Positions 6,801 through 58,389 of a stretch of DNA of 64,000 nucleotides are shown piece by piece. Origin of the DNA: Candidatus Poribacteria bacterium (GTDB taxonomy: Bacteria; Poribacteria; WGA-4E; WGA-3G); contig JAJEGI010000103.1 in assembly GCA_022819945.1 (NCBI GenBank), positions 41,821-105,820 of the forward strand. The letters run 5' to 3'. How positions within the stretch are numbered: the stretch's first letter is position 1; each line of letters starts with the position of its first letter. Under the pieces are notes generated by a model, which did not search any database, had not been told where the DNA came from, and was given only the letters and a program-made list of their open reading frames with translations. Both the position numbers and the translations under genes were made by a program.

Positions 6801-9800
6801 AACGCAATGTCCGACAACTCGGGCCTTTGAGCTTTGATTCAAAGGTTGAACTTCTCATAACAGAAGGCACAAGTCAAATTGATGTGATGATGGAGTATAC
6901 GCTTTTTGGGGATCCCGCTTTACAGCTTGCTATTGCTGATGGCGAAATTCAACCGACCATTGAGACAAAGACGGTTGCCCCAGGAGATACGCTCCGAATA
7001 GCACCGGGGCACATTCAGACTGCTACTTATGACCCGGTCAGTCGGACGAAACGCTTCGCTAAAGATACCGGTTTTAACGGCACGCTTACTGTCAAAGCAC
7101 TATTTCCAGGTAAAACGGCTGTCTCTCAAGGTGTCGCCGGCCCCGTTGAATACTACACCGGTGATGTCCCTTTGACCAAAACGCTTACTGTTAGCCAAGG
7201 TGCCTATCCAGCTGTGACGTTCACGGTTCCACGGAATATTGCAAGTGGCGATGCACACGTTGAGTACTATGCACAAAGCAACACAACTGTTGCCGTTGGT
7301 GGCGACGGTTTTACCGTCAATGTCCCGAAAATTCTTGATATCCGTCCCGAATTAGTCGGCGAAGATAAGTTTCAAATCTCTGTTCAGATTTCTGATGAAA
7401 AGGAGCAATCGCTCCTTGTCGTCATGGAGTGGCGCAATTTAGAAACACGCCAATGGGAGACGGTCCATCTCATCCAAGGATCCCGACCCGTTAGCGCGGA
7501 AGGGACAAGTAAAGATGGATGGTGGACAACGCCTGAACCGCTAAGCGCGCCTACAGACGGTTCCCTTGTACGATATGAAATTACGGTTACAGATTCAGAT
7601 GGCAATATAACTAAAAGTGATCGCCTTGAGTATTATCCTTACATCTATCCGAACCTCTCCGTTGTCGAAGTAGGGAGAGCCGATATGATAGGTTACGGCT
7701 ACAATTCGCAAGTGAAACAGTGGTATCTATCCGCTGATGTTCAGGTAGAGGGGGGGAAAATAAAAACACCTGTTGATGTCTCTTTTTTTAGCGGCAATCC
7801 TGATACTGACGAAGATATGATCGTTGATAGCGATGTCAAATTTCTCGGAACCGCTCGGATTCGACCCGAAGACTGGATACAACGCACGCCGCTTGTAGGG
7901 GCTGGGTTACCCAACGAAGAGGCACCTTCACGGAAAGATGTCTATGAACCCGATCCCCTGAATATTTTGCCCATTGCAACTGCAACTTTAAATCTGAAAA
8001 ATCAACTGCCTTTCGGGACACACGACATATTTGTTTATGTCGATGTAACAGAAACTGAAACGGATCAATTCGGTAATATTCTTGAAAATGATGAAGCGGA
8101 TAATATCGCCTATCGTCGAATCTCTGTTGATATGGGTATGATCGGATCCACTTCAAGTCAAGTTATCAGTTTGGACAGAAACTGCGTTGTCACGGCACCT
8201 CCTGGGGCACTTCAGGATACAGCAGTGCTTTCAATTCGTGCGTTAGATGAACAGGCATTCGCAGCTATAGGAACGGGGGACACTGGAACGGCTACAAAAC
8301 CTATAGCTACAAGCACAATTACAGATATGTCCGGGCGCACGCTACTGCCGGGGCGGACCGTATACGGTTACGAAATAGTGCTGAATAAGCGTTTCTTAGC
8401 TGAAAGCCAAGAACCGACAGACGATAGCCGTGTTCAGTTGGCATCTCCTGTGGCAATTGACTTAAGTTTCGACTTCGGCGCCCTCAGAACACAACTCGCT
8501 GAAGAGTTATTGGGCAGTTCAGAGGAAGTGACAGATGGATTAGATGTCGCAGACACGATTGATACAGCGGTTGTAACTCGCGCGCGTGAAATGGGGATCT
8601 ACATGTTCAGTCCAATCCTCGGATATTGGACAAGGCTCCCCTCGCAGCAGCTGACCAATGCCACGGGCGCGTTACAAGAGCGCATGCATGTAACAAATGT
8701 GACTGATGAAAATGTTGGAGGCGGGCGACTCAACGATGTTAGTATCCAACCTGAAGGCATACCAACCGGCAAATATGTCCTCTTTTTCACAGGACCTCGA
8801 ACCTATCGGGTCTTCTTCGCACCCTTCGTAGCGGAGTCACAAGAACTTGATGCCTTGGAAGTTATTTCATCGGCAGAGCAGCTCGCAAGTTTCAGTATAG
8901 ACTACCCGAACTTTACACATGGGTTTGCTTTGAACTTGGAACAGGATTTTGAGCAACCTTTCAGGTTCGGAGATGTTTGGGCATTCAACATAACTGCGAT
9001 CAACCAACCCGTGGAGGTCCAGACAAACGTTGAAGATCTGCTCCAACAAGAACTGCATTGGTACGCTTCTGGATTCAGAGACACCAATCGAGGCACCGGT
9101 ACCATCAGTTATATTGAACTTCCAGCAGATACGACTATACCTGAAGATCGATGGACTATCTTTTTCATGACGCATACCGAATTTCGGGTTGAAGGTGAGA
9201 AAACAGGGATTTTGCGTTCTCAAACGGATGGTACGCCGCTCCACGGAACAATTGGGCAACCGTTCTTCCACGAACGCTACGGTTTACGGTTTCAACTTAC
9301 ACAAGGGGAAGACCCTTTCACCCCTGGTGATAGATTCCGCTTTGAAACTCGATCTATTGGTATCATTCGGGCAACAACGGATCGACTCGGACCGATTACG
9401 CTCATGTACAGTGACGATACCGTGCCACCAGACATCCAACTCACCATCGGTAACCAGCAACATTTTGTGCCGGGCGATGCGACAGACCCTGAACCCCTCA
9501 TCGGCGCGACGTTAACCGATCCGAGTGGGCTTGATTATCTCACCCGACCGATACTTTTAGAACTTGGAAGGGTATCAGGCGAATACGAACCTATTGATCC
9601 AGAGATGTATCAATTAACACATAACCCAGGTTCAAACCAACTCGTTTTAACGTATCCTTCTCCTGAGCTTGAACCACGAGAGTACGAACTTCGACTCACG
9701 GCAAGCGATGTGCATGGAAATACCGACACAAAACGTACTACATTTCGGGTCCACGACAACTTGCAGCTGCTATCGTTTCTGAACTATCCGAATCCGTTTC

Positions 9801-32988: not shown

Positions 32989-33216
32989 ATGAAGACCTTT
33001 GGCATAATTACTTGTCTACTCATATTAGCCTTGAGCCAGCAGATTGTCCAGGCACAACAGCTGCAAGTTAAAGAAGAATCTGCTGAAGACTTTGTTAAAT
33101 TAGGGATGCCTTTGGAAGAAGCACTCACCCAAATTACTTTCATTATTACGTGGTTAAGCGGAGAAGGAAGTCAACTACCCAAGCCTAAAGACTTGGGCTT
33201 GTTAAGAGATCATTGA
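32989..33216 (+). CDS. small signal-peptide ORF whose 3' end runs into the IS right end
   Basis: MKTFGIITCLLILALSQQIVQA looks like a signal peptide. The last ~15 codons lie inside the TnpB element, so the ORF may be truncated or chimeric. Confidence 0.25.
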   Translation: MKTFGIITCLLILALSQQIVQAQQLQVKEESAEDFVKLGMPLEEALTQITFIITWLSGEGSQLPKPKDLGLLRDH

Positions 33217-33330
33217 ACAATAACAGTTGTTCAGCAGTCTCAAAGCCCGTGTCTCGTGCTTCGTTTGTGTTTCTCGTTTCATAGAGGGTGGTAACCCACC
33301 GCTCTCCACGAAAGGCAGCAGCTGCCTTAA
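33150..33330 (-). ncRNA. putative omega-RNA (reRNA) scaffold overlapping the tnpB 3' end and RE
   Basis: Position is inferred from the known TnpB architecture. Local hairpins gaacaa..ttgttc and cccaag..cttggg on the minus strand. No covariance model was run. Confidence 0.3.
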
Positions 33331-34710
33331 AAAGTATATTTACCGCAGCGTTGTGGTCTCGGTCTAAAGTCGTGCCACAAAACTGACAACTGAAAGTCCG
33401 CACCGATAGCGATAACTTTTTCGGGGCTTTCTGACCACAACTTGAGCAAGTTTGCGAGGTGTTCTTAGGATCGACTTGATGGAAGTGGAAACCGTCTCTT
33501 TCGGCTATGTTTCCAGCCCACTCAAAGAACTTTTCCCAAGACGCATCGGATATGCTCTTGCTGAGGTGTTTATTCCGAACTATGTTTGAAACGCTTAAAT
33601 CTTCAGCGATAAGAACGTTGTTTTCTTTATGATGATAGAGTTTGTAGACGAGTTTACCGATAAAGTCTTTGCGTTTGTTGGTAGTGCGTTCTTGGTGCAA
33701 GGCAGAGGCATGCACGGCTTTATACCAGCGTTTAGAGCCTTTTTTACGGCGTGCCATCGTCTGATTGTGTTTGTGGAGCAGCCCTTCGGCTTGACGATAC
33801 CAGCGGGGGTTATCTTCTTTTTCGCCTTCCGAAGTCGTTAGGTAGTGTGTGGTGCCAACGTCAACAGCGATCGCATGCGTCGGCTCAACTTTCGGAGTAT
33901 CTGGCAACTCACAGGTAATATGAGCATACCAACCAGATGCTTTTTTGACGAGCGTGACTTGTGTTGGATCCCCTTGAAGCGGGCGGTGCATGTATATTTT
34001 CACTTCGCCAAGTTTCGGCACTTTCAAACGGTCATGTTTCCATGCTGTTTCGCGGATCGGGTTTTCGCGAACACGTATGGTTTGTTTTTCAGTGTCTTTT
34101 GTTTTCCGACGAACAACTTTGGTATAGTTGCGAAGTTTCCACGTCATAGATTTAATCTGTTTGCGGTGTCTTGGATAGCCTTTTTTCGCAGTGCCGTTTT
34201 TACAACGTCGATAAAAACCATCAAACGCTTTATCCATGCGTTCTAAGGCACATACTTGCATATCTTGGGGAACAGCCCGAAAGTCCGAATATCTTTCACG
34301 CGCAATCGTCAACTTCTTTTGTTGCTCATTGCAAGAAATAGATTGACCTTCAGTCTCCCAAGCAACTTTGCGATCGTGGCGCGCAGAGTTCTGAAGTTCA
34401 CAAAGATGCTCAAGCCATATTAATAATGTTGTTTGTTGTGTCCGTGTCGGATACACAGGGTATCTAAAAGTCAGTTTCATGGTATATCGTGTATCGTGCG
34501 TTTATCCCCTTCTTAGTGGGAGGCAGACACATTACCAAGTGGTAACGCTAAGAATGTCTGCCAACACGATACTATAAGTATACCACAATTTCAGACCAAA
34601 GTCAACTGTTTTTTTAGGCGTTTGGTCTAATTCATGAGGGCGGATTTTCCTCCCAAAGATAAATCTTTGGGCTTCCAATCCGTAAACTTAGGTGAAGCCT
34701 GTAACACCTT
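33165..34710 (-). mobile_element. IS200/IS605-family element carrying only tnpB (approximate ends)
   Basis: Related subterminal hairpins at 33178-33205 (agcccaag..cttgggt) and 34658-34686 (cccaaagat..atctttggg). Extra nested hairpins at 34481-34590. No tnpA. Confidence 0.55.
33185..34480 (-). CDS. tnpB: RNA-guided endonuclease TnpB (IS1341/OrfB-type)
   Basis: RuvC triad contexts AIAVDVGTTHY (D), LIAEDLSVSN (E), LDRDHNAAVNI (D). Zinc ribbon CSSCG...CQFCG. Confidence 0.9.
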   Translation of the reverse strand: MKLTFRYPVYPTRTQQTTLLIWLEHLCELQNSARHDRKVAWETEGQSISCNEQQKKLTIARERYSDFRAVPQDMQVCALERMDKAFDGFYRRCKNGTAKKGYPRHRKQIKSMTWKLRNYTKVVRRKTKDTEKQTIRVRENPIRETAWKHDRLKVPKLGEVKIYMHRPLQGDPTQVTLVKKASGWYAHITCELPDTPKVEPTHAIAVDVGTTHYLTTSEGEKEDNPRWYRQAEGLLHKHNQTMARRKKGSKRWYKAVHASALHQERTTNKRKDFIGKLVYKLYHHKENNVLIAEDLSVSNIVRNKHLSKSISDASWEKFFEWAGNIAERDGFHFHQVDPKNTSQTCSSCGQKAPKKLSLSVRTFSCQFCGTTLDRDHNAAVNILFKAAAAFRGERWVTTLYETRNTNEARDTGFETAEQLLLFNDLLTSPSL

Positions 34711-39700: not shown

Positions 39701-40570
39701 TTGCCCATCCTTCCAACCAAGTCTCTTCCATCCTTCCGTCCTTCCAATTTTTTCTTTTCTCGCTTTTGGGACTTTTTACCTCTGATAGTACTTTTAGGGG
39801 TCGGGTTGTTTGGATGTACGTCTCCGGATCCAGAGCAGCAACAGAGGCGTGAGCTGCAACGTGATGCCTTAAAACTCAGAATGGGGCAGGCACTCAACCC
39901 GACGGATGCGGAGGGACATCTTCAACTCGGCAAAATCTATCGCGAATTGGGTGAGTCTGAGAAAGCGATAGAATCCTTTCAAAACGCCATCGCACTTGAT
40001 GATGAACACGAACACGCCTATAACAATCTCGGTCTGGTTTATACCGACCTCCGCTTATATGTACTTGCGATTGAGATGTTCCAAGCTGCACTTGAGTTGT
40101 CCCCCGAAAACCCCGCCTTCTATAACAACCTCGGCTATGCCTACAATATGACAGAACAATTTGATGAAGCATTCGCCGCCTACCGCAGCGCAATTGAATC
40201 CGATCCAACCTTTGTTGATGCCTATTACAATCTCGCCGATGCTTACCTCAACAGCGATATGTATCAGGAAGCGATTCAGTATTATGAGTCAGCACTCGAA
40301 ATCGAAGAGGGCGACGCGGATGTCTATTTTAATGTCGGTCTCGCTTACGAGGAGAACGGACAGTTCCTCCGCGCAATCCAATCCTATGAAAAAGGATTAT
40401 CGCTTGATGATAGCGATGTAGAAGCTTACTATCGTCTCGCGCAGGTGTATGAAAAAAATGGCGATTCACTTATGATGCGTCGCTATCTGGAGACGTTTTT
40501 GGAGCGGGCGCGAGGGATTCCGTATCTTGAGGAAGAGATCCGCGAGGCGGAGCAGCTGTTTGATCGATAG
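39701..40570 (+). CDS. TPR-repeat lipoprotein (start uncertain)
   Basis: Lipobox LLGVGLFGC. At least six TPR units (AYNNLGLVY, FYNNLGYAY, AYYNLADAY, VYFNVGLAY, AYYRLAQVY). The ORF-track 5' extension 39410-39700 is antisense to the amidohydrolase gene. Only TTG in-frame starts are available. Confidence 0.65.
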   Translation: MPILPTKSLPSFRPSNFFFSRFWDFLPLIVLLGVGLFGCTSPDPEQQQRRELQRDALKLRMGQALNPTDAEGHLQLGKIYRELGESEKAIESFQNAIALDDEHEHAYNNLGLVYTDLRLYVLAIEMFQAALELSPENPAFYNNLGYAYNMTEQFDEAFAAYRSAIESDPTFVDAYYNLADAYLNSDMYQEAIQYYESALEIEEGDADVYFNVGLAYEENGQFLRAIQSYEKGLSLDDSDVEAYYRLAQVYEKNGDSLMMRRYLETFLERARGIPYLEEEIREAEQLFDR

Positions 40571-41879
40571 CGTTTTTTCGCAAGATCAGCAGAAATTCTG
40601 ACTTCATCCCGTCCGGGTTCTTATTCTTCCGCGCACCGAATAACTTCCGCGTTTTAATCCGATCCTCATAGACCTTCTCAAACGTCCATCCACGTTCCGT
40701 AAAATACTCCACCAATATTCGCCATATCTCGACCGTTATACCGTCAATCCGTGGATTGCCGACAAAGATACAGGCTGCTGCGTTCGGTTTCAGTTGGTTC
40801 ATCGAATTTTCAAGCGCGTTGACCGTATGGCAGAAATAGGAATCGAGCCGTTTTCGGAGATCGTCCCGTGTGAGCGTCTCTCGAACTTTATTCAACGTTC
40901 TCGTCTGAATCACCCGATCCGCCTTCCGATACGGGATTTCAAGCCGTGATAGTGCTTGCACCTCCGCCTCGGTGTGTCCCAACCAGAACAGGTCCATCTT
41001 CGTAGAACGGATATATTCCTGTGCCTGAAGATACGGAGGCGATGTGATGAGCGTGTCACAAACTCGCGGCACAGCCACATCCGACGAATCAACGCCTCCA
41101 TGGAATTCAATCTGCCCCAGATCTTCAGCGTGATGCTGCCGTGTATATACCACAAAGTCGTTCAGGTCTCTTAATGTTTTCAAGGAGAGATTCTGAACCA
41201 TCTCATCTAACTGTTCTCTCCAATTTTCCTTAAGCAGTGCCTCTATAGCGTTCAACTTCCGTTTGGATCTGGCAAGTTTGGGGGTCCTATCTTCCGTATA
41301 GGAAAAGCGTTTGCTCGCCTTCAACAACGCTGCTTTAATAATAGCGGCATAGATCCCGCCATCTGTCCTGTTGATGAAACCCCAGTATTGCGATAAGACT
41401 TCCAAAATTTCAGGCGCGTACCAGTAGTCAACATTCGACCAAGCAGGTGTGAACTGCTCGTTGCTTTCTTGCATATCTGCTAAAAGTTTGGACAAACTTG
41501 CTTCGGACAATATCTCTTTACCGCGATAAACCTTGAGGGGCATAATGTGATTCAAAAGAAGATTCAGGTCGAGTAAAACAGCGTTACGTTTGCACAGATA
41601 CGCCTCAACACCCACTGTTCCTGAACCTGCGAACGGATCGACAATCCAATCCCCTTCTTTTGTGTAGGTGTTAATCGCATAACGGACAATCTGCGGAATG
41701 AATTTCGCGGGATAGGCATAAATAGCGTGCGTCAGGTAACCGGTATCACTGATTTCGGGGACTAACTCTCGGAACGAAACTAATTCTATTCCTTCAAATA
41801 TGGAATCTTCTTTGAAGTCCTTGAGTTCGGTATCTGTAGGGAAAAGCGTGAATTGTTCTGTGGGATTATTTTTTTTCAT
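40470..41879 (-). CDS. DNA methyltransferase (N4-C/N6-A class; motif I then a long variable region then SPPY)
   Basis: DPFAGSGTVGVEA (AdoMet motif I) and TLITSPPYLQAQEY (motif IV). Confidence 0.8.
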   Translation of the reverse strand: MKKNNPTEQFTLFPTDTELKDFKEDSIFEGIELVSFRELVPEISDTGYLTHAIYAYPAKFIPQIVRYAINTYTKEGDWIVDPFAGSGTVGVEAYLCKRNAVLLDLNLLLNHIMPLKVYRGKEILSEASLSKLLADMQESNEQFTPAWSNVDYWYAPEILEVLSQYWGFINRTDGGIYAAIIKAALLKASKRFSYTEDRTPKLARSKRKLNAIEALLKENWREQLDEMVQNLSLKTLRDLNDFVVYTRQHHAEDLGQIEFHGGVDSSDVAVPRVCDTLITSPPYLQAQEYIRSTKMDLFWLGHTEAEVQALSRLEIPYRKADRVIQTRTLNKVRETLTRDDLRKRLDSYFCHTVNALENSMNQLKPNAAACIFVGNPRIDGITVEIWRILVEYFTERGWTFEKVYEDRIKTRKLFGARKNKNPDGMKSEFLLILRKNAIDQTAAPPRGSLPQDTESLAPAPKTSPDSDAS

Positions 41880-42996
41880 GATATGCTTTCAAAAACAACA
41901 AATCTCTGATGTATTGCGCCTTGTCTGCTAGTGATTTTACAGGAATGCTATCTTCTGTCCAAAGTGGAATTATCTTTTGAACGATGTTGTCAATTGAATC
42001 TGTTAAAGTCTGATAAGATGTATAATTGAAATCCATTCCTATTTTATTATATTTTTCCTCTAATAACTTGATATTCGATTTACCAGACAATGACGCAACT
42101 TCTAATTCCAAACTTGCTATAGTGTAAGCAATCCACAAATCATCCCAGTCACTTACCAAGTCAACAATAGTAGATATGGCATCTAAAACTTTCTCGTTTT
42201 CATCGCCTATCCATTCAAAGAGAGAACTTGCTATTTCGTCGGTACCGTATACCATTTTTAAATAAATGTTTTTTTGCAACCTTACTTCGTTTCTAACAAT
42301 CTCATGAAAATCTTTTTCTTCTACCTCAATGTATTCCTTCAAAGATGAAAACATTTTTCTCACTGTTGAAATTTTTTGTTGTGAGTCACGAGGATCCCAA
42401 ATGCAAACGAGATAAAGTATATTACTGTGAGGGGTTTTGTTAAGCCTTAAGAGTTCTCGCAGCATATCAGCAAGCGATCCTTTAGCAGTTGTACCTCCGG
42501 TGTCATCTCTTGAACGAAGTTGAACAATAAGAGTTTTTTTCTTCGTTAAATCCGATGCCATCACATCAATATCAAGGTTTGGAGATTCATCTGTCTCGAA
42601 AATATCGTTCAAAAGCGAAAGTTTATCGTTTTTCTTTTTTGGGACGTTATCACATTTTCCGTACTGCTCCAGAATATCCTGCATCATCTGTTCAAGCACT
42701 TTACCTTGTCTAGCTCGAAATGAACTATGAAAGAATTGATGGAATGCAAACATAAATGGGTAGTAAGATGCGAGTGGATAGGTATCAGAAAGTCTTTCGG
42801 CTCGCTGTATTCCAGCTGCAAAAAGTTTTATCTCATCCAAATTATCCTTCAATTCCGACAGCCTTTCTTCAAAGAGGGATGTTATTATCCATGAGGCGAG
42901 GCAGAGAGGGCTTTTAAGAATCTCTTTCACCTTACCGGTTTCTTCGCTTGGGTTCATCAAATATAGAAATCTTCTCTCAGGGTATGTACTTTTCAT
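41866..42996 (-). CDS. putative type II restriction endonuclease partner (unrecognised family)
   Basis: 14-nt overlap with the methyltransferase start. Clearly more AT-rich than its neighbours by eye. DIDVM...LIVQLRS could be a PD-(D/E)xK-like core. Confidence 0.4.
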   Translation of the reverse strand: MKSTYPERRFLYLMNPSEETGKVKEILKSPLCLASWIITSLFEERLSELKDNLDEIKLFAAGIQRAERLSDTYPLASYYPFMFAFHQFFHSSFRARQGKVLEQMMQDILEQYGKCDNVPKKKNDKLSLLNDIFETDESPNLDIDVMASDLTKKKTLIVQLRSRDDTGGTTAKGSLADMLRELLRLNKTPHSNILYLVCIWDPRDSQQKISTVRKMFSSLKEYIEVEEKDFHEIVRNEVRLQKNIYLKMVYGTDEIASSLFEWIGDENEKVLDAISTIVDLVSDWDDLWIAYTIASLELEVASLSGKSNIKLLEEKYNKIGMDFNYTSYQTLTDSIDNIVQKIIPLWTEDSIPVKSLADKAQYIRDLLFLKAYHEKK

Positions 42997-48534: not shown

Positions 48535-48644
48535 CTCCTTGTAAACGTAGACAAGTCGGTATATGGTAAATTTTGGAATGACTTAGATATTTTCAATGGA
48601 TAGACAACCGCCTAAACCCTCACTGTCATATCTTCCGTTATCAA

Positions 48645-48680
48645 GGGGGTAGGGAATTAACCCCTAAATTCCCTACCCCC
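48645..48680. repeat. perfect 14-bp-stem hairpin (gggggtagggaatt / aattccctaccccc)
   Basis: Read directly from the sequence, 8-nt loop. Not positioned downstream of any called gene. Confidence 0.7.
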
Positions 48681-49389
48681 TAATCCCCAACGTCCCATAT
48701 CTCCTATCAGGGATAGGGACCTTTGGAGACTTCACACAAAAACCGAGCTGCTGGTAAATGGCTATTTACTTTTATAATTCATCACAGTTGCAACCGAGGA
48801 TTACCTACACAAAAATAGGGCTATTGAAAAAGGCATTCCTCCGAGAGCCTAACTTCAGTTTTGGGGTTATTTGTCATTGATGTTCGGGGGTATACAATAC
48901 GGTTGTTTTAGCGGCCTTGATAGCAAATGTTCGGGGGGTGATTCGCCTGTCAAAGTCTTTAGAAATTCGACCAAATCGTCGCGCCTCTTCAGTGAAAATC
49001 TGTTGAAATCAGATACCATATACTTGTTTCCTTTGCTCAGACATTATTGAGCACTGTACATTGTCGCATTTAGAAGTAGCTGTAACAAATAAACAGGTTT
49101 TATGATATAATATGATAGATAGAGGGTTTATATCACAGCAAGAACACAATCCAGTTAGCATAATGATATTAGGTCAATTTCAATAATTTGTGTGTTTTAT
49201 AATTAATTGTCCTAATATCAGTAAATTATACTTTGTCCTGATTGATAAGTCAAATTAAATTTGCAGAAAATTGCTTAATTCGCTCAAAAAACGCCTATTA
49301 AATTCGGAAAGTCATATCAAATCGTACAACTAAAAATTTTTATATTTGTTAAAATTTCTTCTATATGATTTTTTTTTTGTCCGAAAAAC

Positions 49390-49419
49390 TTGAATGAGAG
49401 TAATGACCTTTGATATAAT
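49390..49419 (+). promoter_or_regulatory. strong sigma-70-type promoter, TTGAAT-N18-TATAAT with extended TG
   Basis: TTGAAT 49390-49395 and TGaTATAAT 49411-49419. About 70 nt upstream of AGGAGG and ATG 49491. Confidence 0.55.
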
Positions 49420-49490
49420 TAACGATAGTAGTGGTACCCGTCGGTACGAGAATAGATTCTGCAATTCAATTTAGGAGGCTCCCAATAGCG

Positions 49491-52400
49491 ATGAATTCTC
49501 TGAAAGACCTTGTTCAGCGCTGTCATCAACGGCATGAAAAGCCTCTTCGACAACGCAAGACAGTGGCAACACCTGCGATGTATACAAAGGATCACCCGCA
49601 CCAGTACACGGTCTACTGTGCCCACCGCTATCCTGTCATGCTTCAAGACCTTGAGCAAGCGGATATCTCATTCATGCCTATGGGACGCGCGCCTTGGCAT
49701 GATCGGGGTCCCGGAGATTTTAGGGGCAAGCGGTTCTTGAAACGCCAAGGCATAACAGATTGGGGTCTTAAACGATGGGACGCCTCATGGGGGCTTCAGT
49801 TGCATACAGGCATGCCTTCGGAACGCAATGGCGCGCGATGGCACGATCTGCACTTCAAGTATGAGGCGATCTGTGCTGACCCTGATGCTGTTGTCGCTTG
49901 TATTGAAGCACTCGTCAATATTGTTAATAATCCGCTTTTGACATTAGGGAAGTCCGGTGGGCTCCGCTTCTCCTGCAGAGTTCAAGATTATCTCTATCCC
50001 GATACCGAAACCGCGAAGTTGTATATCTATAAAGACACCCCGACACCAGAAGATACGTATCAACGGGACGTGTATCTTGAAGTATTTGGCGAAAAAGGGT
50101 ATACACGCTGGGATGCACGCTATGAAATATTGATTGGTGACCTATTAGCCCCACCGGTCGTTGACAAAGAGGTCCTCTTTGCCCCAATTGAAGCCCTCCG
50201 TGCGAAACTTCATGAACCTGCCCCTGGTGATACAGAACCGAAACAAATTGTCACCCGTCTGCCCCAATCTTTCGGTTCAGAGCACCTTGATTTCGCGAGA
50301 GAGGCATTCTTGCAGCGTGGATTTTCTTATGTCCGACAAGAGGACGGTCTCTACTACTGGACACAACCTAAAGGTACCCTTGGCAGTGAAGATGTCCTAC
50401 TATCGGAAAGAGATAGCGTGGTATGGATCCGGGCATTTACACCTGACACCGGGCTGCCAACGCAGTCCACGCCAATCACAGAAGTTTGGGACGATACAAG
50501 TATTCCATCCTCTATAGATGCGACAAGCACCCGTGTCCCCGTGAAAGTAAAACAGGTACGAGAAGATGAACTCAGCCCATTGGCGATTAAACGTCCACCT
50601 CCGGTATTAAAACAGGACGATAACACCGAAAACGATGAGATACTCCAGAGAGATGTGTTTCAGATTGAAAGCATTTTCGACCAAGGCGTACGAATTCTTG
50701 GCGTTATTACAGGGATAGGTCCCTGGGACGAGCAGGCGCAAGACTCATATTTCCTCAGCGGCGGTGTGATTTCCGTAAATACGCCGGAGGCTAAATTCGC
50801 AGAAAGCGCGGCGCAATACTTTCGAGAACAGAATATGCCATCGGTGGTTTACTGGAAACCGCGAACACATCTCTGGGAACAGGTGAAAGACATACCTGCT
50901 GATGTACGTATGAAAACACCTTTTCAACGTGGCAATGTCTGTGAAGACCCAGAACGCTGTGCCGCGCTTGAGGAAAAGGGTGGGAATCCGAATGAAAGTA
51001 TCTGTCCACAGTGCCCCGTCTATACGGAGTGTCAGCAGCGTGGATACTTATCGCAATTCGCTGCATTACGACATGCGAAAGTCCAAATGTTGACGATTCC
51101 GCAACTGTTTTTTGATCCCCAATATACCGAATTCGTAGAACAGATTCTCAAACCAGAAGGTGAAACCGAACGACTTTGTGTGCTCAACCAACAGCGCACA
51201 CATGACTTATTCCTTGAGTGTCAACTCTCAAAAAACGTTATGGAGGAATGGGCGACGCACTGGCAAGGCTGTGCCTTAGGGAGTTTCGCCAAAACATTGC
51301 TGAGTGCGCTGGATATTAAGGGCAAACTTTATGGTGATGCCGTTAAAGGCGTGCGCGCAGCGATGCAGACCTTTGAATGGCAAGAGGAAACACTTATCCA
51401 GCAGATGTGCCAAGTGAGAGTGCATGCCAAGGCGGTAGAGCACCGGATCGTTGACGATGATACCGGAAAGACCTTGGCAAACTTTATTATTGAGTTTGAA
51501 GGCGGCACCACGGCTTACATTCCTTTAGACAGTAATGCCGTAGATAAACTCAAAGCGAAAGGATTCCCGGTCTTTCCGAAATCCGTTCCACTTAATGAAG
51601 ACCTGAAAGTTGCGATGCCGATGACGCAAGCGATTACATTAGGGATCTTGGATACAGAGACTGTAGAGAGCATTCAGGCATTTCCAACCGTCTATCGGGA
51701 ACAAGGCTGGACATTTTGGCACCAACTTAAGTGTTTCTTCGCGCATTACACGCGAGATGCCGATGCACCGATTCGCTGGGATGGTGAAGTCCTGCGGTTC
51801 TGGGTGCCACCCGTGCTTCATGCAAGCGTTAAACGGCTTTTGTTGGTATCCTCCGTATTCTCAGAACAACATCTCCACAGAGTGTTCCCCGATGAAAACT
51901 TTGAATCCTATTGGACCGAACCGATACCCTGGAGCCCAGGGAACCGCGTCTTTCAAGTACGCACAGGTATCTATCCATCAGAAACCATCCTCGACTACCA
52001 TAACTGGAGTAATGTAGGTGTTTCCGAAACAGGACAACGTTTTCTGCGCGGAATCCACGCCGAGCTTGAGGTGGATTTAAGCGTTAAACACGGGATTATA
52101 ACCAATGAAGATATTGCCAGACGCTTGGGCGACATCGCAAAGGAAAGGAACGTCTGCTTCGTAGATGATTTCCAGAAGATGAGTATGTCTGACACGCTTT
52201 CTGAAACAGCAGATGTCGTTTGGGTCGTTGGAACACCGCGACGACCGACGACAGCTATTTGGCAGCGTGCCCAGATGTTGTTTGGGAACGATGAAAAACC
52301 GCTCTCTTACGAAGACGAAATAGAGTCAGGAACCTACAGAGACCCGCGGCTCCAAGGTATTTATGAAGAAGAAGCTGTTTACGCGCTCACAGAGGTTATT

Positions 52401-52883
52401 GTACAGGCTGAGTTGGACCGATTGACGGATAGACGGATTGTGTTGATTACCGGATTACCACTTCCCAACATTACCGATAGACCTGAAACTTCGATCTTTG
52501 ACTGGGAAGATTTTGAGATTGCCGGTGGATTGGATAAACTCCCTGAGGCGATAGCGATACGCGAACGCTTTGAACAGGAGCGTGAGAACCTATCGGCTGA
52601 GTCCAGTAGGGAAGAAGTCCAGCGCGTTTTGGGTTGCTCCGAAAGACAGGCAAACCGCGTTTTACAAAGACTGAGAGGCGGGAATATCCTGCGCGTGCCT
52701 TTCCGACAGCAAATTCTTTCCTTACTTACGGATGGCGAGAAAAAAACGGCCGAACTGATTGCCGCCATTGACGGACATCCAGAGGCGATACAACACGAAC
52801 TCGCGCGGCTTGTGGATGCCGGTGAGATCGTCAGAATCCGGCGCGGTGTATATGCTTTGCTGCTCAAAGATAGCAAACGATAA
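49491..52883 (+). CDS. 1130-aa orphan protein: degenerate primase-polymerase (AEP)-like N-terminus, Cys cluster, C-terminal winged-helix
   Basis: ATG 49491 follows AGGAGG. GKSGGLRFSCRV and LEVFGEKGYTRWD resemble AEP motifs II and III. CEDPERC...CPQCPVYTEC cluster. C-terminus LLTDGEKKTAELIAAIDGHPEAIQHELARLVDAGEIVRIRRGVY is MarR/TrmB-like. Confidence 0.6.
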   Translation: MNSLKDLVQRCHQRHEKPLRQRKTVATPAMYTKDHPHQYTVYCAHRYPVMLQDLEQADISFMPMGRAPWHDRGPGDFRGKRFLKRQGITDWGLKRWDASWGLQLHTGMPSERNGARWHDLHFKYEAICADPDAVVACIEALVNIVNNPLLTLGKSGGLRFSCRVQDYLYPDTETAKLYIYKDTPTPEDTYQRDVYLEVFGEKGYTRWDARYEILIGDLLAPPVVDKEVLFAPIEALRAKLHEPAPGDTEPKQIVTRLPQSFGSEHLDFAREAFLQRGFSYVRQEDGLYYWTQPKGTLGSEDVLLSERDSVVWIRAFTPDTGLPTQSTPITEVWDDTSIPSSIDATSTRVPVKVKQVREDELSPLAIKRPPPVLKQDDNTENDEILQRDVFQIESIFDQGVRILGVITGIGPWDEQAQDSYFLSGGVISVNTPEAKFAESAAQYFREQNMPSVVYWKPRTHLWEQVKDIPADVRMKTPFQRGNVCEDPERCAALEEKGGNPNESICPQCPVYTECQQRGYLSQFAALRHAKVQMLTIPQLFFDPQYTEFVEQILKPEGETERLCVLNQQRTHDLFLECQLSKNVMEEWATHWQGCALGSFAKTLLSALDIKGKLYGDAVKGVRAAMQTFEWQEETLIQQMCQVRVHAKAVEHRIVDDDTGKTLANFIIEFEGGTTAYIPLDSNAVDKLKAKGFPVFPKSVPLNEDLKVAMPMTQAITLGILDTETVESIQAFPTVYREQGWTFWHQLKCFFAHYTRDADAPIRWDGEVLRFWVPPVLHASVKRLLLVSSVFSEQHLHRVFPDENFESYWTEPIPWSPGNRVFQVRTGIYPSETILDYHNWSNVGVSETGQRFLRGIHAELEVDLSVKHGIITNEDIARRLGDIAKERNVCFVDDFQKMSMSDTLSETADVVWVVGTPRRPTTAIWQRAQMLFGNDEKPLSYEDEIESGTYRDPRLQGIYEEEAVYALTEVIVQAELDRLTDRRIVLITGLPLPNITDRPETSIFDWEDFEIAGGLDKLPEAIAIRERFEQERENLSAESSREEVQRVLGCSERQANRVLQRLRGGNILRVPFRQQILSLLTDGEKKTAELIAAIDGHPEAIQHELARLVDAGEIVRIRRGVYALLLKDSKR

Positions 52884-53014: not shown

Positions 53015-53050
53015 ATAACATCTTGAGGCAATTTACTTTGGAGGATGGTC

Positions 53051-56014
53051 ATGAAAAACGAAGATGTCGGGCTGATTCAACGCATCTTGTCTGGTGATGA
53101 TAGTGCGTTCACTGCACTCGTGGATAGGCATCGTGAATGGATTCATTCGCTCGCATGGCGCGAAATCGGTGATTTCCATGCGGCACAAGAAATTACACAG
53201 GATACCTTCATCCAAGCATTTAAATCGCTGCCTACCTTAAGGGATCACAATCGTTTTTTGGGGTGGTTGTATGTCATAGCAAAGCGTCAATGCATCGAAT
53301 GGTTACGAAGGAAACCTGCCACAATGCAGTCGTTAGACGCAATGTCAAAGATTGAATTAGAGCAACTGTTCTATACACGACACCTTGAGAAAGAGTTGAC
53401 ACAAGCATCGACAGAAGAACTCCGCGATGTCGTAGAACGTCTGCTCCGAAAATTGCCAGAAACCGAACGCTCTGTGATGGTATTGCACTATTTCAGTGGC
53501 TTGACATGTGAAGAGGTGAGTGCACGTTTAGACGTATCGCTGAACACAGTAAAGAGTCGACTCTATCGGGCACGGAAACGATTGGAACAGGAGGAGCCGA
53601 TGCTTCGCGAAAATTTGAGTCCCAATTTATTAAAAAGCGATCCACGATACATTAGCGTTCAGGCAACTGCAGCGACAGATACTGGAGAACATATTGCGGA
53701 AGGCGGTTTTGATCTCTGCGAGACAGATAAGGTTTTCACGTCTATCAGTTCTCACACGACAGGACTCAGTGGCGACTACCCGAGACCGATGTACATGCTG
53801 CTCCACTATGTTAATCACGGCAGTGATATTGACCTCTTTAAATTTCCGTTGGTTGATGAAAGTTGTTGGAAGCAGGAAGGTCCCCACAAATCAGAAGTGA
53901 CGACAACCTTGGAAGGAGACCGTGAAACAGTCAAAGTTGCCGCTGGTATTTTTCGAGCGTGCCTGAAACATAAAACCGTCTTCACAAACGCGGATGTTGA
54001 CGAGCCAGATGCCGAATCGCAAAACGCGTTTATAAACGGCACGCGTTATCTGTGGTTTGCTATGGGCGTTGGGCTTGTGAAGATGCGGTATGTGCATGCC
54101 AACGGTGTCGTTACAGAAGCCGAATTGCTTGAATATAAGATTCCAGACGAATCGCAAGAATACCTCCCAGTCCAAGTTGGCGCGGAGTGGACTTACAGAT
54201 GGCACAGCGATTATCGTGAGGAAGCCGTTATTGAGGAGTGGCGGGTCATTAGGAACTTCAGTGAACCTAAGGCACTTGATAACCCGATGGAGCTTGCGTC
54301 GGCAAGGTATGAGGTCAAAGTGGATGCCGATGCACCGCGCGTCGCGCATGTCAAGTGTACACTAACGCCGAAAGTGGGCAGCGGTGCCAAAGCGGACCAA
54401 AAGTTGTTGCCATTATCCATGAGCCATTTTGGTACGGAGTGGTTGTACGATGGATATGCCCGGTATCTTCGAGATTTGACAGTCATTGATGCTAACGGAA
54501 AGACATTACAAGTAGAAGAGATTGGCAAGACGCAGTGGATCGTTGAAGTCCAAGATGAATCACCTGTGACGTTGGACTATAAAGTGCTCCTCAATCATGA
54601 TACGCGCGATTGGCCCTTTGGCAGGAATGAAGCACCCTACGCCCAATCGGATTGCGTATTCTGGCCCGGGTATGCGCTGTTTATCGTCGGTGAAGTGAAG
54701 GATATTGAACTAAAAGTTGATGTGCCTGACAATTGGCATGTCTCAACGCATTGGGAACAGGTTGCGTCGGATGGACATCGTTTCGTATGCGAAGATCAGG
54801 ACGACCTGATGTTTGCGTATCTCGTGCTTGGGGAATACTGTAAAAGTTTGGCAAAAGTCGGAGATACGGAGGTTGTCGTTGCGCTGGGTGGACGTTTTAA
54901 AGCGTCTATATCCGAAGTGCAGGGGACTGTTGAGGCACTGTTGGAAGGCTATGCAACCGTATACGGTGGTACGCCAAAGGGACGGATACTGTTTGTCGCG
55001 AACCCTTATGGCGAAAAAGGACATCTCGGCGGTGGGGCATCTCGGCGTAGTATCACTGCACATATAGGTGACGAATTAGATGAAGCGAGTCGGCGTTTTT
55101 GGCTGCCGCTGGTTTCACGCGTGGCTGGTTATGTCTGGGTTGGACGCGGGGGTATCAATTCTAAAGAGCAGGAATATTGGTTCGTTGCCGGTTTCACGCA
55201 GTATTGTTCAGAAATCATCTCTGCCCGCCTTGGACTTACATCTGAAAGCGATTTTCTTAGGAATTTTGAACGCACGTGGGAGTCGTATCTATCTCGACAA
55301 GGCGAGCTCTCTATCCGCGAGGCGGGTGAAGATAAATCCGCTAACCGTGAACTCGTCTATGATGGCGGCTGTTTAGTCGCGGCTGCTTTGGATTTGCAGA
55401 TTCGCAACCGAACGCAAAATCGAGGCAGCTTGGACGATGTAATACAACAGATGTATCGTGAGTTCGGTCTCACTGACAACGCCTTCACGATAAACGATGT
55501 GGTTAGGATTATCAGCCAAATTGCAGGTGAAAATTTTAAACCTTTCTTCAATGAATACGTGATCGGAACAGAACGATTGCCCTTAGAAGAATACTTTACA
55601 GACGCGGGTTTGGATGTTGAGATAGCATTTGGCGAAAGACTACCGAGTCTTGAACATATTCTCTTTCAGATGCTTGAGATTAAATCACTTGGCGGTCCAA
55701 CAGGCGGTGGCATGTTCATCCACCATTCACCGCAATATGAAGACGATGACAACTTGATATGCATCAACGGCACACCGGTGAAATATTTTGACGACATCAG
55801 AAGGGTTGCTAAAGACTGGAAATCCGGGGACGTAGTGGAACTAACCCTTGAGAGAGAGGGTGAAGAAATTGTCCTGCCGATCACATTAGCAGGGGACACC
55901 TCTAAAAGACCGCCGTTGGAACCGGGTATTATTGATGTCACGATCACGAAAAGAACAGATCGCACGGACTTACAACGCGCGATCTGGTCGGGAATGTTAG
56001 GAGAAAATGAATGA
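53051..56014 (+). CDS. ECF sigma factor fused (no TM segment) to an M61-peptidase/PDZ-like body with all zinc-site residues substituted
   Basis: N-terminus MKNEDVGLIQRILSGDDSAF... is paralogous to the 14197 sigma. Regions 2 and 4 are present. The C-terminal ~790 aa are colinear with 56011..58389, but HEICH is replaced by RVAGY (55118-55132) and SEGFT by VAGFT. Confidence 0.85.
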   Translation: MKNEDVGLIQRILSGDDSAFTALVDRHREWIHSLAWREIGDFHAAQEITQDTFIQAFKSLPTLRDHNRFLGWLYVIAKRQCIEWLRRKPATMQSLDAMSKIELEQLFYTRHLEKELTQASTEELRDVVERLLRKLPETERSVMVLHYFSGLTCEEVSARLDVSLNTVKSRLYRARKRLEQEEPMLRENLSPNLLKSDPRYISVQATAATDTGEHIAEGGFDLCETDKVFTSISSHTTGLSGDYPRPMYMLLHYVNHGSDIDLFKFPLVDESCWKQEGPHKSEVTTTLEGDRETVKVAAGIFRACLKHKTVFTNADVDEPDAESQNAFINGTRYLWFAMGVGLVKMRYVHANGVVTEAELLEYKIPDESQEYLPVQVGAEWTYRWHSDYREEAVIEEWRVIRNFSEPKALDNPMELASARYEVKVDADAPRVAHVKCTLTPKVGSGAKADQKLLPLSMSHFGTEWLYDGYARYLRDLTVIDANGKTLQVEEIGKTQWIVEVQDESPVTLDYKVLLNHDTRDWPFGRNEAPYAQSDCVFWPGYALFIVGEVKDIELKVDVPDNWHVSTHWEQVASDGHRFVCEDQDDLMFAYLVLGEYCKSLAKVGDTEVVVALGGRFKASISEVQGTVEALLEGYATVYGGTPKGRILFVANPYGEKGHLGGGASRRSITAHIGDELDEASRRFWLPLVSRVAGYVWVGRGGINSKEQEYWFVAGFTQYCSEIISARLGLTSESDFLRNFERTWESYLSRQGELSIREAGEDKSANRELVYDGGCLVAAALDLQIRNRTQNRGSLDDVIQQMYREFGLTDNAFTINDVVRIISQIAGENFKPFFNEYVIGTERLPLEEYFTDAGLDVEIAFGERLPSLEHILFQMLEIKSLGGPTGGGMFIHHSPQYEDDDNLICINGTPVKYFDDIRRVAKDWKSGDVVELTLEREGEEIVLPITLAGDTSKRPPLEPGIIDVTITKRTDRTDLQRAIWSGMLGENE

Positions 56015-58389
56015 AAGAAAAAATTGCGTCTGAACGCAACATTATCTTGAGTGCGAATACTGCTACAGAAAGTGGCGGACATCTCGCAGAAGGGACTTTC
56101 ACACTGAAGAAAACCGATACAGTTTTGACATCTATTGACTTTGGCACTGCAGGACACGGTGGTGGTGATCCGTCGCCGAAGTACATGTTGCTATATTATA
56201 TGAGCCATTGTAATACTGACCTCTTCAAATTTCCGATCGGTGTTGGCGAAACTTGGACAGAAGAAGGACACTGGCATGTACAGACGCGAAGTCGTTTGGA
56301 GGGGCATGAATCTGTAGAAGTCTCAGCAGGCACGTTCTCGGACTGCCTCAAACATAAAACTGTCTTCACAGACGCTGATGTAAAGGATACTAAAGCTGAA
56401 CTACGAAACGCGCTTTTGAACGGCACCCGTTATCTATGGTTTGCCGAGGGTATCGGTCTTGTTAAACTACGGTATGAACATTCCAATGGGGTCGTCACAG
56501 AAGCCGAATTGCTTGAATACAAGGTTCCTGTTGAAGACCGAGAATATCTTCCTTTGCAAATTGGCAATCTGTGGACCTATAAATGGCAAAACATGTATCG
56601 TAACGAAGCTGCTATTGAAGAGTGGCGCGTCATCCGAAATTTCAGGGAACCTGAGAATCTTGATACCCCAATGAAACTTGCATCGGCAAGGTACGAGGTG
56701 AAAATAGATGCCGATGAACCGCGCGTCGCACACGTCAAGTGTCTGCTAACGCCGAAGGCAGACAGTAACACAAAAGATGCCCAAAAGCCGTTGCTGTTAT
56801 TCATGAGCCATTTTGGGACTGAAGACCTGTACGACGGATATGCTCGGTATGTTCGAGATCTGACAGCCATAGATACGAATGGAGAAAAAATACCGGTCAC
56901 AGAGATTAACAAAACACAGTGGGTAGTTGAAACGCAGAATGCATCGCCTGTGACGTTGCGTTACAAAGTCCTGTTGAATCATGATGCGCGGGAGTGGCCC
57001 TTCGGTAACGATGAAGCACCCTACGTGCAAGAAGACTGTATTTTCTGTCCCGGATATGCTTTATTTATCACCAGTGAGGTGGAAGATATTGAACTGCGTG
57101 TTGATGTTCCCGATGACTGGCACGTCTCGACCCCTTGGAACCCTATTGGACACGAAAAGTATCGTTTTACTGTCGCAGATCATGACGACTTGATGTATGC
57201 GTATCTTGTGCTGGGGACGCATTCCGAGAGAGTGGTGGAATCTGAAGAGACAGAGATTGTGCTTGCCTTGGGTGGACACTTCAAAGCATCTATGGGTGAA
57301 GTCCAAAGAACTGTTGAATCACTTCTGCACACGTATTCAAAGATTTTTGGGGGGACACCAAAGGATCGCATGTTATTTGTGGCGAACCCTTGTGATAAAT
57401 ACAGCGGAGGCGGTGTATCAGGACACAGCATCAGCGTTCTGATGGACGGAACATTGGGGGCAGACAACAGACACTCATGGGCACCGCTCGTAGCACACGA
57501 AATTTGCCATATCTGGAATGGAAAAGCGATCGATTTTAATACACAGGAGTACTGGTTTAGTGAAGGTTTCACGGAGTACTGTTCAAAAATTACCTGCGTT
57601 CGCCTTGGCATAATTTCTGAAGATGATTTTCTCAGAGACCTTGAGCGCAAGTGGGAATTGTATCTGTCTAAGCAAGGCGATCTCTCTATTCGGGAAGCAG
57701 GCGAGAACAAGTCTACCAACCGAAATCTGGTCTATGAGGGCGGCAGTCTGATTGCTACCGCGTTGGACTTGCAGATTCGCACTTTTACGGAAAACCGGAA
57801 CAGTTTAGAAGATGTAATGACGCAGATGTATCGTGAATTCGGTCTCACAGAAAAAAAATATACGATGGACGATATCATCAAGGTTGGTAATCAAATTGCA
57901 GGTGAAGATTTACAACCGTTCTTCAAAAAGTATGTGGCAGGAACAGAACGGCTGCCTTTAGCGGAATACCTGAAAGACGCGGGTTTGGGTGCTGAGATAG
58001 CATTTGGGGAAGAACTTCCGAGTCTCGGACATATTCTCTTTCAGATGCTTCATATCTATTCACTGGGCGGTCCAACGGGCGGAGGCATGTTCATCCACCG
58101 TTCACCGCAATATGAAGACGATGACAACTTGATATGCATTAACGGCACACCGGTGAAATATTTTGATGACATCAGAAGAGTTGCCAAAGCGTGGAAACCG
58201 GGTGATGTGGTAGAGTTAACCCTTGAAAGAAAGGGTAAAGAAATTGTCCTACCGATCACATTAGCAGGTGATCCATCTGAAAAACCACCCATGGAGCCAG
58301 GGCCCATTGACGTTAGTATCACAAAAAAAATGGATCTTACAGAATCACAACGCGCCATTTTGACTGGTATTTTAGGCAATGATCGGTGA
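56011..58389 (+). CDS. peptidase M61-like gluzincin with C-terminal PDZ domain (cytoplasmic, intact active site)
   Basis: HEICHIWNG (57496-57510) plus YWFSEGFTEY. PDZ-like DDNLICINGTPVKYFDDIRRVAKAWKPGDVVELTLERKG. ATGA overlap with the upstream gene. No signal peptide. Confidence 0.8.
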   Translation: MKEKIASERNIILSANTATESGGHLAEGTFTLKKTDTVLTSIDFGTAGHGGGDPSPKYMLLYYMSHCNTDLFKFPIGVGETWTEEGHWHVQTRSRLEGHESVEVSAGTFSDCLKHKTVFTDADVKDTKAELRNALLNGTRYLWFAEGIGLVKLRYEHSNGVVTEAELLEYKVPVEDREYLPLQIGNLWTYKWQNMYRNEAAIEEWRVIRNFREPENLDTPMKLASARYEVKIDADEPRVAHVKCLLTPKADSNTKDAQKPLLLFMSHFGTEDLYDGYARYVRDLTAIDTNGEKIPVTEINKTQWVVETQNASPVTLRYKVLLNHDAREWPFGNDEAPYVQEDCIFCPGYALFITSEVEDIELRVDVPDDWHVSTPWNPIGHEKYRFTVADHDDLMYAYLVLGTHSERVVESEETEIVLALGGHFKASMGEVQRTVESLLHTYSKIFGGTPKDRMLFVANPCDKYSGGGVSGHSISVLMDGTLGADNRHSWAPLVAHEICHIWNGKAIDFNTQEYWFSEGFTEYCSKITCVRLGIISEDDFLRDLERKWELYLSKQGDLSIREAGENKSTNRNLVYEGGSLIATALDLQIRTFTENRNSLEDVMTQMYREFGLTEKKYTMDDIIKVGNQIAGEDLQPFFKKYVAGTERLPLAEYLKDAGLGAEIAFGEELPSLGHILFQMLHIYSLGGPTGGGMFIHRSPQYEDDDNLICINGTPVKYFDDIRRVAKAWKPGDVVELTLERKGKEIVLPITLAGDPSEKPPMEPGPIDVSITKKMDLTESQRAILTGILGNDR

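Follow-up and report, generated by a model that had tools for sequence, protein, structure and literature searches.

The stretch of DNA considered here, which we call the window, comprises 64,000 nucleotides of a Candidatus Poribacteria contig (JAJEGI010000103.1, positions 41,821 to 105,820, assembly GCA_022819945.1), and our subject is one gene on its forward strand, the 1130-residue product of which combines a primase-like N-terminal domain and a helicase-like core, both apparently inactivated, with a C-terminal winged helix (Table 1). The gene lies between a di-haem oxidoreductase (DHOR) gene and a gene in which an extracytoplasmic function (ECF) sigma domain is fused to an M61-like domain. 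It is present as a single copy in the window, with no tandem partner. Its open reading frame (ORF) runs uninterrupted from either a GTG at 49431 or an ATG at 49491 to position 52883, and the ATG is the real start; AGGAGG precedes it, and it is conserved across orthologous loci. A sequence-only reading that preceded this analysis had given the gene a promoter of its own; conservation bears this out, the string CTTGAAT...TTTGATATAAT being kept in 10 of 12 orthologous loci. Judged from the window sequence alone, the number of promoter-like sites in this region (9, versus 7.5 +/- 2.7 expected) is not above chance. The intergenic stretch before the ECF-sigma/M61 gene is likewise conserved.

Table 1. 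Features of the gene and its upstream region. Positions are those of the window; residues are those of the predicted protein.
Feature	Position	Strand	Basis
Conserved upstream element: imperfect palindrome and near-consensus minus-strand promoter	49161..49253	.	Ortholog conservation, pairing
Sigma-70-type promoter, TTGAAT-18 nt-extended TG-TATAAT	49390..49419	+	Consensus scan, 10/12 matches
Ribosome-binding site AGGAGG, 10 nt 5' of ATG	49475..49480	+	Sequence; TTTAGGAGG nearly invariant among orthologs
Coding sequence, 1130 aa	49491..52883	+	ORF and translation; full-length homologs, 53-89% identity; dN/dS versus 12 orthologs
Predicted Prim-Pol (AEP) fold domain, residues 1-245, catalytically degenerate	49491..50225	+	AlphaFold model, Foldseek
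AEP motif I remnant WHDLHFKY, residues 117-124, strand 115-122	49839..49862	+	N-domain alignment, 40 relatives; motif table, 73 Poribacterial copies
AEP motif II position KSGGLRF, residues 154-160	49950..49970	+	K154, G156, G157, R159 invariant or nearly so
Candidate AEP motif III RWDARYE, residues 206-212	50106..50126	+	D208 invariant across superfamily
Small alpha/beta domain, residues 262-345, no zinc ligands	50274..50525	+	Alignment A3; model pLDDT 75-82
Predicted XPD/DinG-like superfamily-2 helicase core (two RecA-like domains and inserted domains), residues ~390-1010	50658..52520	+	Foldseek, full-length model
Degenerate Walker A VITGIGPWD, residues 405-413	50703..50729	+	Core alignment, ~100 relatives; strand 402-406, loop, helix 414-420 in model
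Cys cluster C484-x5-C490-x14-C505-x2-C508-x5-C514, residues 484-514	50940..51032	+	Conservation; position between Walker A and Walker B
Degenerate Walker B LCVLNQQ, residues 562-568	51174..51194	+	Alignment with relatives; beta strand 562-566 in model
Degenerate helicase motif VI YALTEVIVQAELD, residues 964-976	52380..52418	+	Alignment with relatives
HTH (helices 1040-1061) then winged helix (1071-1123), residues 1036-1125	52596..52865	+	Pfam AbiEi_4, HTH_5, HTH_23; model

The same reading had called the protein an orphan, which it is not. A search covering 5.8 billion protein clusters returned 1309 homologs (counted as 90%-identity clusters at E <= 1e-3), the best 120 of them all full length and 57-89% identical; a profile search of 50%-identity representatives gave 606 clusters, and tblastn confirmed 315 genomic copies in species-representative genomes, one per species. 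Genome loci were retrieved for the best 80 of 315 or more copies, and 79 of 79 retrieved loci belong to Candidatus Poribacteria or to metagenome-assembled genomes (MAGs) labelled only "uncultured bacterium". Single chromosomes carry several diverged copies, 53-60% identical to one another and often arranged in tandem pairs or runs of four, with at least 4 loci in OZ251998.1 and at least 6 copies in each of OZ244616.1 and OY282374.1. Members are named "hypothetical protein" or "AbiEi family antitoxin domain-containing protein" at NCBI, and our literature searches returned nothing on this Poribacterial family. Two orthologs (L004 and L005, 1075-1076 aa) are about 55 residues shorter than the window protein through an in-frame deletion, their ORFs remaining open and conserved.

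The N-terminus had been read as a degenerate archaeo-eukaryotic primase (AEP, or Prim-Pol) on the strength of three strings, WHDLHFK (residues 117-123), GKSGGLRFSC (153-162) and LEVFGEKGYTRWD (196-208), all of which are present, and a structure search had been proposed as the check. In a first full-length AlphaFold run on 111 close homologs this part of the protein was unusable, with predicted local confidence (pLDDT) below 50 at residues 18-112 and 167-256; the domain folded confidently only once relatives at 20-37% identity had joined the alignment (A3), which gave for residues 1-262 a model with pLDDT 89 and a predicted template-modelling score (pTM) of 0.86. Searched with Foldseek against BFVD, a database of predicted viral structures, the model returned 25 matches at E <= 1e-3, the best at E 1.5e-8 with template-modelling (TM) scores of 0.56-0.59 and a root-mean-square deviation of 3.7 A, and nearly all of the named matches are annotated as primase/polymerase or primase-helicase proteins. 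Against the PDB, NrS-1, pRN1, LigD PolDom and CAPP came out on top, all weakly (E 4.5e-3 and above). Model and structure search together thus support the AEP-like fold that had been proposed. Curated sequence models are silent here, with no Pfam, NCBIfam or PHROGs match in residues 1-1030, and hhalign gave no significant similarity between the N-terminus and the BT4734-like N-termini of sister proteins (probability 0.15%).

The suspicion that this AEP is catalytically degenerate is supported, with one correction at motif II. The hhhDhD/E pattern of motif I is absent: H121 and K123 stand where mobile-element relatives of the protein conserve D and E (TDLDFEY, LLDIET, WDIEE), and the glutamate is missing, with K or T instead, from all 73 full-length chromosomal Poribacterial copies that were taken into a motif table. 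At motif II (sxH) the histidine is replaced by R159, but this is a trait of the family rather than a lesion of the window copy, the arginine being present also in relatives with all other motifs intact; SGGxR is the rule in most of the family, and histidine occurs only in the P0286/P0162 clade (SGGQH). The hD/E of motif III is present in the candidate RWDARYE, where D208 is invariant in 74 of 74 aligned sequences, the motif being assigned by position rather than by superposition. The small domain that follows occupies the place of a CHCC zinc finger (C-x4-H ... C-H-N-C) in the intact relatives, residue-level alignment there being approximate.

The middle ~700 residues, which had been left as unrecognisable, can be recognised by their predicted fold. 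A full-length AlphaFold model built with the 111 homologs (pLDDT 68.7, with 70-90 in the core) was compared with the PDB by Foldseek, and its best match is XPD (9p55, E 2.2e-10). Nine XPD, DinG, CasDinG and Hna entries, at probability 1.00 and E 2.2e-10 to 6e-6, outrank UvrB, RecQ and SecA, and the core matches include XPD from three archaea (9p55 and 2vsf, both from Thermoplasma, and also 3crw and 2vl7), human TFIIH XPD (5of4_B), Staphylococcus aureus DinG (8zef), CasDinG (7xf1) and Hna (9yhn). Because these matches rank XPD and DinG first, residues ~390-1010 are assigned, by prediction, to the XPD/DinG-like superfamily-2 (SF2) helicase fold, and the XPD-type arrangement of RecA-like and inserted domains is recovered in a model of moderate confidence. 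Sequence profiles of the protein and of its family gave no match to the core among PDB sequences, and in searches of Pfam, NCBIfam, PHROGs, PADLOC and PDB sequences with the protein or family profiles only the C-terminal helix-turn-helix (HTH) and winged helix-turn-helix (wHTH) region was matched.

The motifs expected of such a helicase are replaced throughout. In place of the Walker A sequence GxGK[ST] (TGxGK[NDTS] in relatives) the protein has ITGIGPWD, with P411 at the lysine position, in agreement with the sequence-only reading, which had seen no Walker A motif. At Walker B (DE(A/x)H), where relatives have IVDE or IIDE, the acidic pair of hhhDE has become N566 and Q567, and at motif VI (QxxGRxxR) the window protein reads EVIVQAE (E968, V971, Q972, E974) against QAxGRxRL in relatives. 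The cysteine cluster that had been noticed by eye is better preserved: all five of its cysteines are invariant or nearly so in the 111 homologs, and four of them (C484, C505, C508, C514) are conserved superfamily-wide. Walker A (405-413) and Walker B (562-568) flank these four, just as in XPD they flank the iron-sulfur (FeS) domain, and from the conservation and placement of the cysteines we infer that the insert holds an FeS cluster.

At the C-terminus a winged helix had been foreseen, and it is supported by a Pfam AbiEi_4 match (31.4 bits against a cutoff of 25, although no more than 21 of the 49 positions of the profile are covered), by matches to HTH_5 in Pfam and to an ArsR-like model in NCBIfam, which are weak, and by the secondary structure of the model at 1071-1123 (H-H-H-beta-beta); PADLOC AbiEi models match weakly and in the wHTH part only. 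The AbiEi name carried by some members is misleading, because what matches is a generic wHTH. The last ~25 residues of the protein do resemble the AbiEi_4 winged helix of the type IV antitoxin, with 21-30 wHTH residues matched in all, but the protein lacks the AbiEi C-terminal domain, and neither neighbouring gene encodes an AbiEii nucleotidyltransferase.

What the protein once was is suggested by a set of relatives in which every motif is intact. P0181 has the core and wHTH in common with the window protein (28% identity over ~800 residues, E 2e-80) and, like P0271, P0336, P0165 and others, carries in the N-terminal position the Pfam domain BT4734-like_N, an AEP primase family, together with PriCT_2; P0151, P0297, P0329, P0142, P0148 and many others have the same N-domain as the window protein. 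Such an exchange of N-domains between proteins that are close in all else speaks for the two being primase modules of equivalent function. Motif I is of the TDLDFEY type in these mobile-element relatives, its second D and the E conserved throughout, and they also keep KSGGx[R/H], the invariant D in RxDxRYE, the C-x4-H...C-H-N-C zinc finger after the N-domain, Walker A TGxGK[NDTS], Walker B hhhDE and motif VI QAxGRxRL. The window protein, only 25-37% identical to them, retains D208, the SGGLR box, the four cysteines and the wHTH. The islands in which the relatives are found contain genes for phage-type integrase, Rep3, ParA, TrwB/DUF87, AAA_25 and methylase/HNH proteins, along with runs of small ORFs, and by binning some belong to Poribacteria and one to an Acidimicrobiaceae MAG. 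The marks of a mobile-element replication initiator (integrase, partition or transfer genes, or a plasmid or phage location) are thus found with the intact relatives and not with the window gene.

As a separate observation, the Prim-Pol N-domain behaves as a swappable module, BT4734-like_N and PriCT_2 standing in its place in close sisters of P0151 and P0181. In a further group (P0341-P0375, ~1270 aa) the N-domain shares up to 91% identity with its counterpart in P0151, and the remaining ~1000 residues are different and have no Pfam match, apart from a weak Helicase_C match in P0367.

In a neighbour-joining (NJ) tree the chromosomal family is monophyletic with respect to the mobile-element relatives, and E123 is absent in all of its members. 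The ATPase motifs have a different history: Walker A and Walker B are both kept in 16 of the 73 copies, mostly with the GR of motif VI, and the other copies have lost them, usually together. Retention of the two is correlated, which shows that they are genuine ATPase motifs. ATPase-dead copies fall in at least 6 separate clades, and in the clade of the window gene every member has ITGIGPWD and [LI]NQ[QE]. Dead paralogs share their genomes with others in which Walker A, Walker B and GR are intact, and tandem pairs often consist of one intact and one degenerate copy (for example L069 and L061), as would be expected if a dead copy were the non-catalytic regulatory or targeting subunit of a hetero-oligomer with an ATPase-active paralog, a part that inactive paralogs do play in other nucleic-acid machines. 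We nevertheless regard this arrangement as unlikely for the window protein, which is a singleton in its locus and has its own conserved promoter; XPD and DinG helicases are normally monomers, and across the 80 loci we saw neither co-variation with an intact paralog nor constant adjacency to one.

The loss of several catalytic motifs could also mark a functionless relic of an old integration, now decaying. This is exceedingly improbable. The 3.4-kb ORF is intact in every ortholog, and in more than 100 copies overall, and the promoter and ribosome-binding site are conserved. Compared with 12 orthologs, the window gene has a ratio of nonsynonymous to synonymous divergence (dN/dS, Nei-Gojobori) of 0.11-0.16, at dS values of 0.29-1.05, and none of five segments, among them the dead primase and helicase parts, reaches 0.25. 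The gene is under strong purifying selection, and ratios this low mean that it is kept by selection rather than left to decay.

In at least 10 other genomes of Poribacteria an ortholog (72-89% identity) lies within a shared gene order, namely cytochrome b, a GFO/IDH/MocA oxidoreductase, an MR_MLE enolase-type enzyme, sometimes the di-haem oxidoreductase, the gene itself, the ECF-sigma/M61 fusion and an M61 paralog; other paralogs occupy different contexts, each likewise conserved between genomes. The sequence-only reading had proposed a module of an integrated element, perhaps its replication initiator, and had itself named conserved syntenic homologs in related genomes as evidence that would speak against this. 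Because the orthologs do share a syntenic context, an integrated-element module is unsupported. We found no tRNA genes within the window, no integrase near the gene, and no conserved element ends and no att-like or otherwise notable flanking repeats at the locus; the GC content of the gene matches that of its flanks, and neither the window protein nor the intact relative P0151 has a match among 72,556 plasmids or 50,697 phages. Mobile-element status of the locus was accordingly rejected. An active primase-helicase initiator or a defence module of an integrated element would agree with the replicase architecture of the protein and with the long AT-rich region upstream of the gene, but every catalytic motif examined is replaced, and we consider either very unlikely. 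Replication initiation is the ancestral role of the superfamily and not a credible one for the window copy, in which the acids of the primase, both Walker motifs and motif VI are lost. Both the active replicase and the pseudogene are contradicted by the data.

Together with dN/dS of 0.11-0.16, the loss of all catalytic motifs checked points to a domesticated pseudo-enzyme rather than to the replicase of an integrated element. Starting from the identity and ancestry of the protein, its motif loss, selection and synteny as observed, we think it probable that it is a vertically inherited, domesticated chromosomal pseudo-enzyme derived from a mobile-element primase-helicase, most likely a static DNA-binding protein. 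The ancestor was a mobile-element replication protein made up of a Prim-Pol domain, a CHCC zinc finger, an XPD/DinG-like FeS helicase and an HTH with winged helix. Its motif I glutamate would have been lost once, at the base of the Poribacterial chromosomal family; after this loss of the primase the family would have multiplied into several paralogs per genome, and the helicase ATPase site would have decayed later and independently in several clades, that of the window gene among them. The window protein lacks the residues needed for primer synthesis and for hydrolysis of nucleoside triphosphates (NTPs), and it would carry out neither. Sequence recognition on DNA would fall to the HTH and winged helix, and the inactive XPD-like core, together with the Cys cluster, could clamp DNA or offer a surface for interactions.

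A regulatory or nucleoid-type role in the cell, rather than a fast-evolving defence role, is what the stable synteny and the low dN/dS suggest for such a protein, and they also bear on a further alternative, in which the paralogs would be decoys against mobile elements that occupy the origins, or poison the replicase, of related incoming elements, the diverged paralogs forming a repertoire. There is something to be said for this: intact replicases lie on Poribacteria-assigned and on co-binned sponge-metagenome contigs, the wHTH is conserved between mobile-element and chromosomal versions, the parts that would recognise an origin (wHTH, zinc-less linker, FeS core) are kept, the family is multi-copy and diversified, and DinG-like proteins do occur in defence, CasDinG and Hna being among the fold matches. 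The paralogs, however, sit in stable housekeeping synteny and not in defence islands, selection on the window gene (dN/dS ~0.12) is purifying and not diversifying, and PADLOC matches are to the generic wHTH only, with no linked effector, so that we find a decoy role improbable.

Several points weigh against the domesticated DNA-binding pseudo-enzyme that we favour. The PDB matches of the N-domain are weak (E >= 4.5e-3), and the strong ones are to predicted, not solved, viral structures. The full-length model is of moderate confidence (pLDDT 68.7), and its query TM-scores to XPD are low (0.21-0.26), which is expected for a multi-domain query; they are not decisive per residue. Arginine stands at motif II in apparently intact relatives too, so that the active-site chemistry of the whole family is presumed. 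Binding of DNA and of FeS is read from the predicted folds and conserved cysteines, and the apparent monophyly and clade counts come from a single NJ tree without support values. No constant partner gene emerged when 985 neighbouring ORFs from the 80 loci were clustered, no family being present in more than 25 loci; no target was found either, and a palindrome upstream of the gene (described below) is confined to one orthogroup, its link to the window protein being putative.

Going beyond the window protein, we would put forward only tentatively, and as less probable, that the 4 to 10 or more diverged, domesticated dead replicases per Poribacteria genome contain FeS and bind DNA in a sequence-specific way, whether as cellular regulators of a new class, made out of a replication protein of mobile elements, or as origin decoys giving immunity against related elements, and that the parent protein (Prim-Pol, CHCC finger, XPD-like FeS helicase and wHTH) represents an undescribed replicon type of sponge-symbiont mobile elements.

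Since both folds are recovered while the catalytic residues of the AEP and of the XPD-like helicase are replaced, the window protein should be filed as an inactivated derivative, neither primase nor helicase. Its likeness to the XPD/Rad3/DinG helicases lies in structure: residues ~390-1010 match their structures best (E 2e-10 to 6e-6), and the protein has, as XPD does, a four-cysteine insert between Walker A and Walker B and a further inserted domain after Walker B, at the position of the XPD Arch domain. It differs from XPD and DinG in having no detectable sequence similarity to them and no Walker A, Walker B or motif VI, and they have neither the N-terminal primase fold nor the C-terminal wHTH; the cysteine spacing of XPD is also unlike the C-x20-C-x2-C-x5-C found here. 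A parallel may exist in Methanococcales, where Krupovic and colleagues in 2010 reportedly described MCM helicase paralogs that were expanded, partly degenerate and derived from integrated elements. There too a mobile-element replicative helicase would have been captured by the chromosome and multiplied, with catalytic motifs lost in some copies, although the helicase superfamily and the domain of life are different and there is no primase fusion.

With the Prim-Pol proteins proper, such as phage NrS-1 N300 and pRN1 ORF904, the window protein shares the predicted fold of residues 1-245, and its intact relatives share the D-x-E, SGGx[H/R] and D motifs; it differs from them in having no Pfam Prim-Pol match and in the replacement of the motif I acids. 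Fusions of an AEP with a helicase and a winged helix are known replication proteins of mobile elements, and their domain order (primase, zinc module, helicase, winged helix) is the same as in the window architecture (PMC5862659). The helicase partner here, however, would be an XPD-like SF2 member and not SF3 (D5), SF4 or MCM; a survey of AEPs lists SF3, SF4, MCM, SF1 and remote SF2 partners, with XPD or DinG unmentioned (PMC5862659), and no description of a Prim-Pol/XPD-like fusion was found in the literature searched.

These results give a domain-level identity to more than 1300 proteins that now carry the label "hypothetical" or the misleading "AbiEi antitoxin domain", and point to a primase-helicase fusion with an XPD/DinG-like helicase and an FeS-type insert, a combination not previously described in that literature. 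They also document a stepwise exaptation, from mobile-element replicase to conserved chromosomal pseudo-enzyme, in which the primase would have been lost once and the ATPase repeatedly. As the family contains ATPase-intact and ATPase-dead paralogs side by side, it forms a natural series in which the contribution of an XPD-like FeS scaffold can be studied once the motor is gone, and it may bear on genome organisation or defence in an uncultivated phylum of sponge symbionts.

Upstream of the gene, ~100-130 nt around 49180-49310 are 79-95% conserved among orthologs and, more weakly, 5' of some paralogs. The region holds a minus-strand promoter that is close to consensus (TTGACT-17-TATAAT, 49253 to 49225) and an 18-bp imperfect palindrome (49161-49223) with half-sites GATATTAGGTC (49165-49175) and GTCCTAATATC (49209-49219) separated by 33 nt. 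Across 11 orthologs 94% of its cells are paired, and two pairs are changed on both sides in a compensatory manner. Both half-sites together occur only in the orthogroup of the window gene, and the palindrome was rejected as a family-wide operator for this reason; the element may act as an operator or mark where a divergent, possibly small, transcript begins. Rfam gave no match at E <= 1 in the 950-nt upstream region. At one orthologous locus (L007) the conserved element occurs twice (4644-4810 and 9397-9636), and ~7 kb including a sulfatase-family gene are inserted between the di-haem oxidoreductase gene and the ortholog. Further upstream in the window, directly 5' of the di-haem oxidoreductase gene, positions 48644-48681 form a perfect 15-nt inverted repeat (AGGGGGTAGGGAATT / AATTCCCTACCCCCT) with an 8-nt loop, which resembles a repetitive palindromic element and has a related G-rich copy at 48880-48937. 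A DHOR pseudogene fragment or a STAS gene 5' of the gene had been suspected and was unsupported.

Elsewhere in the window, the only clear mobile-element gene seen is of the TnpB type (33185-34480, minus strand; OrfB_IS605 with a Cas12f1-like TNB domain), 15 kb from the gene. At 40470-42996 (minus strand) a DNA methylase gene (N6_N4_Mtase) overlaps a 376-aa ORF with no Pfam match; both lie in the stretch of lowest GC content in the window (0.365 at 42-43 kb), and the region may be a restriction-modification island. Downstream of the gene, 53045-58389 encode the ECF sigma factor (regions 2 and 4) fused to an M61-peptidase-like part of ~800 residues and then an M61 paralog without the sigma domain, and some orthologous loci among L003-L009 have three such copies in a row (L005).

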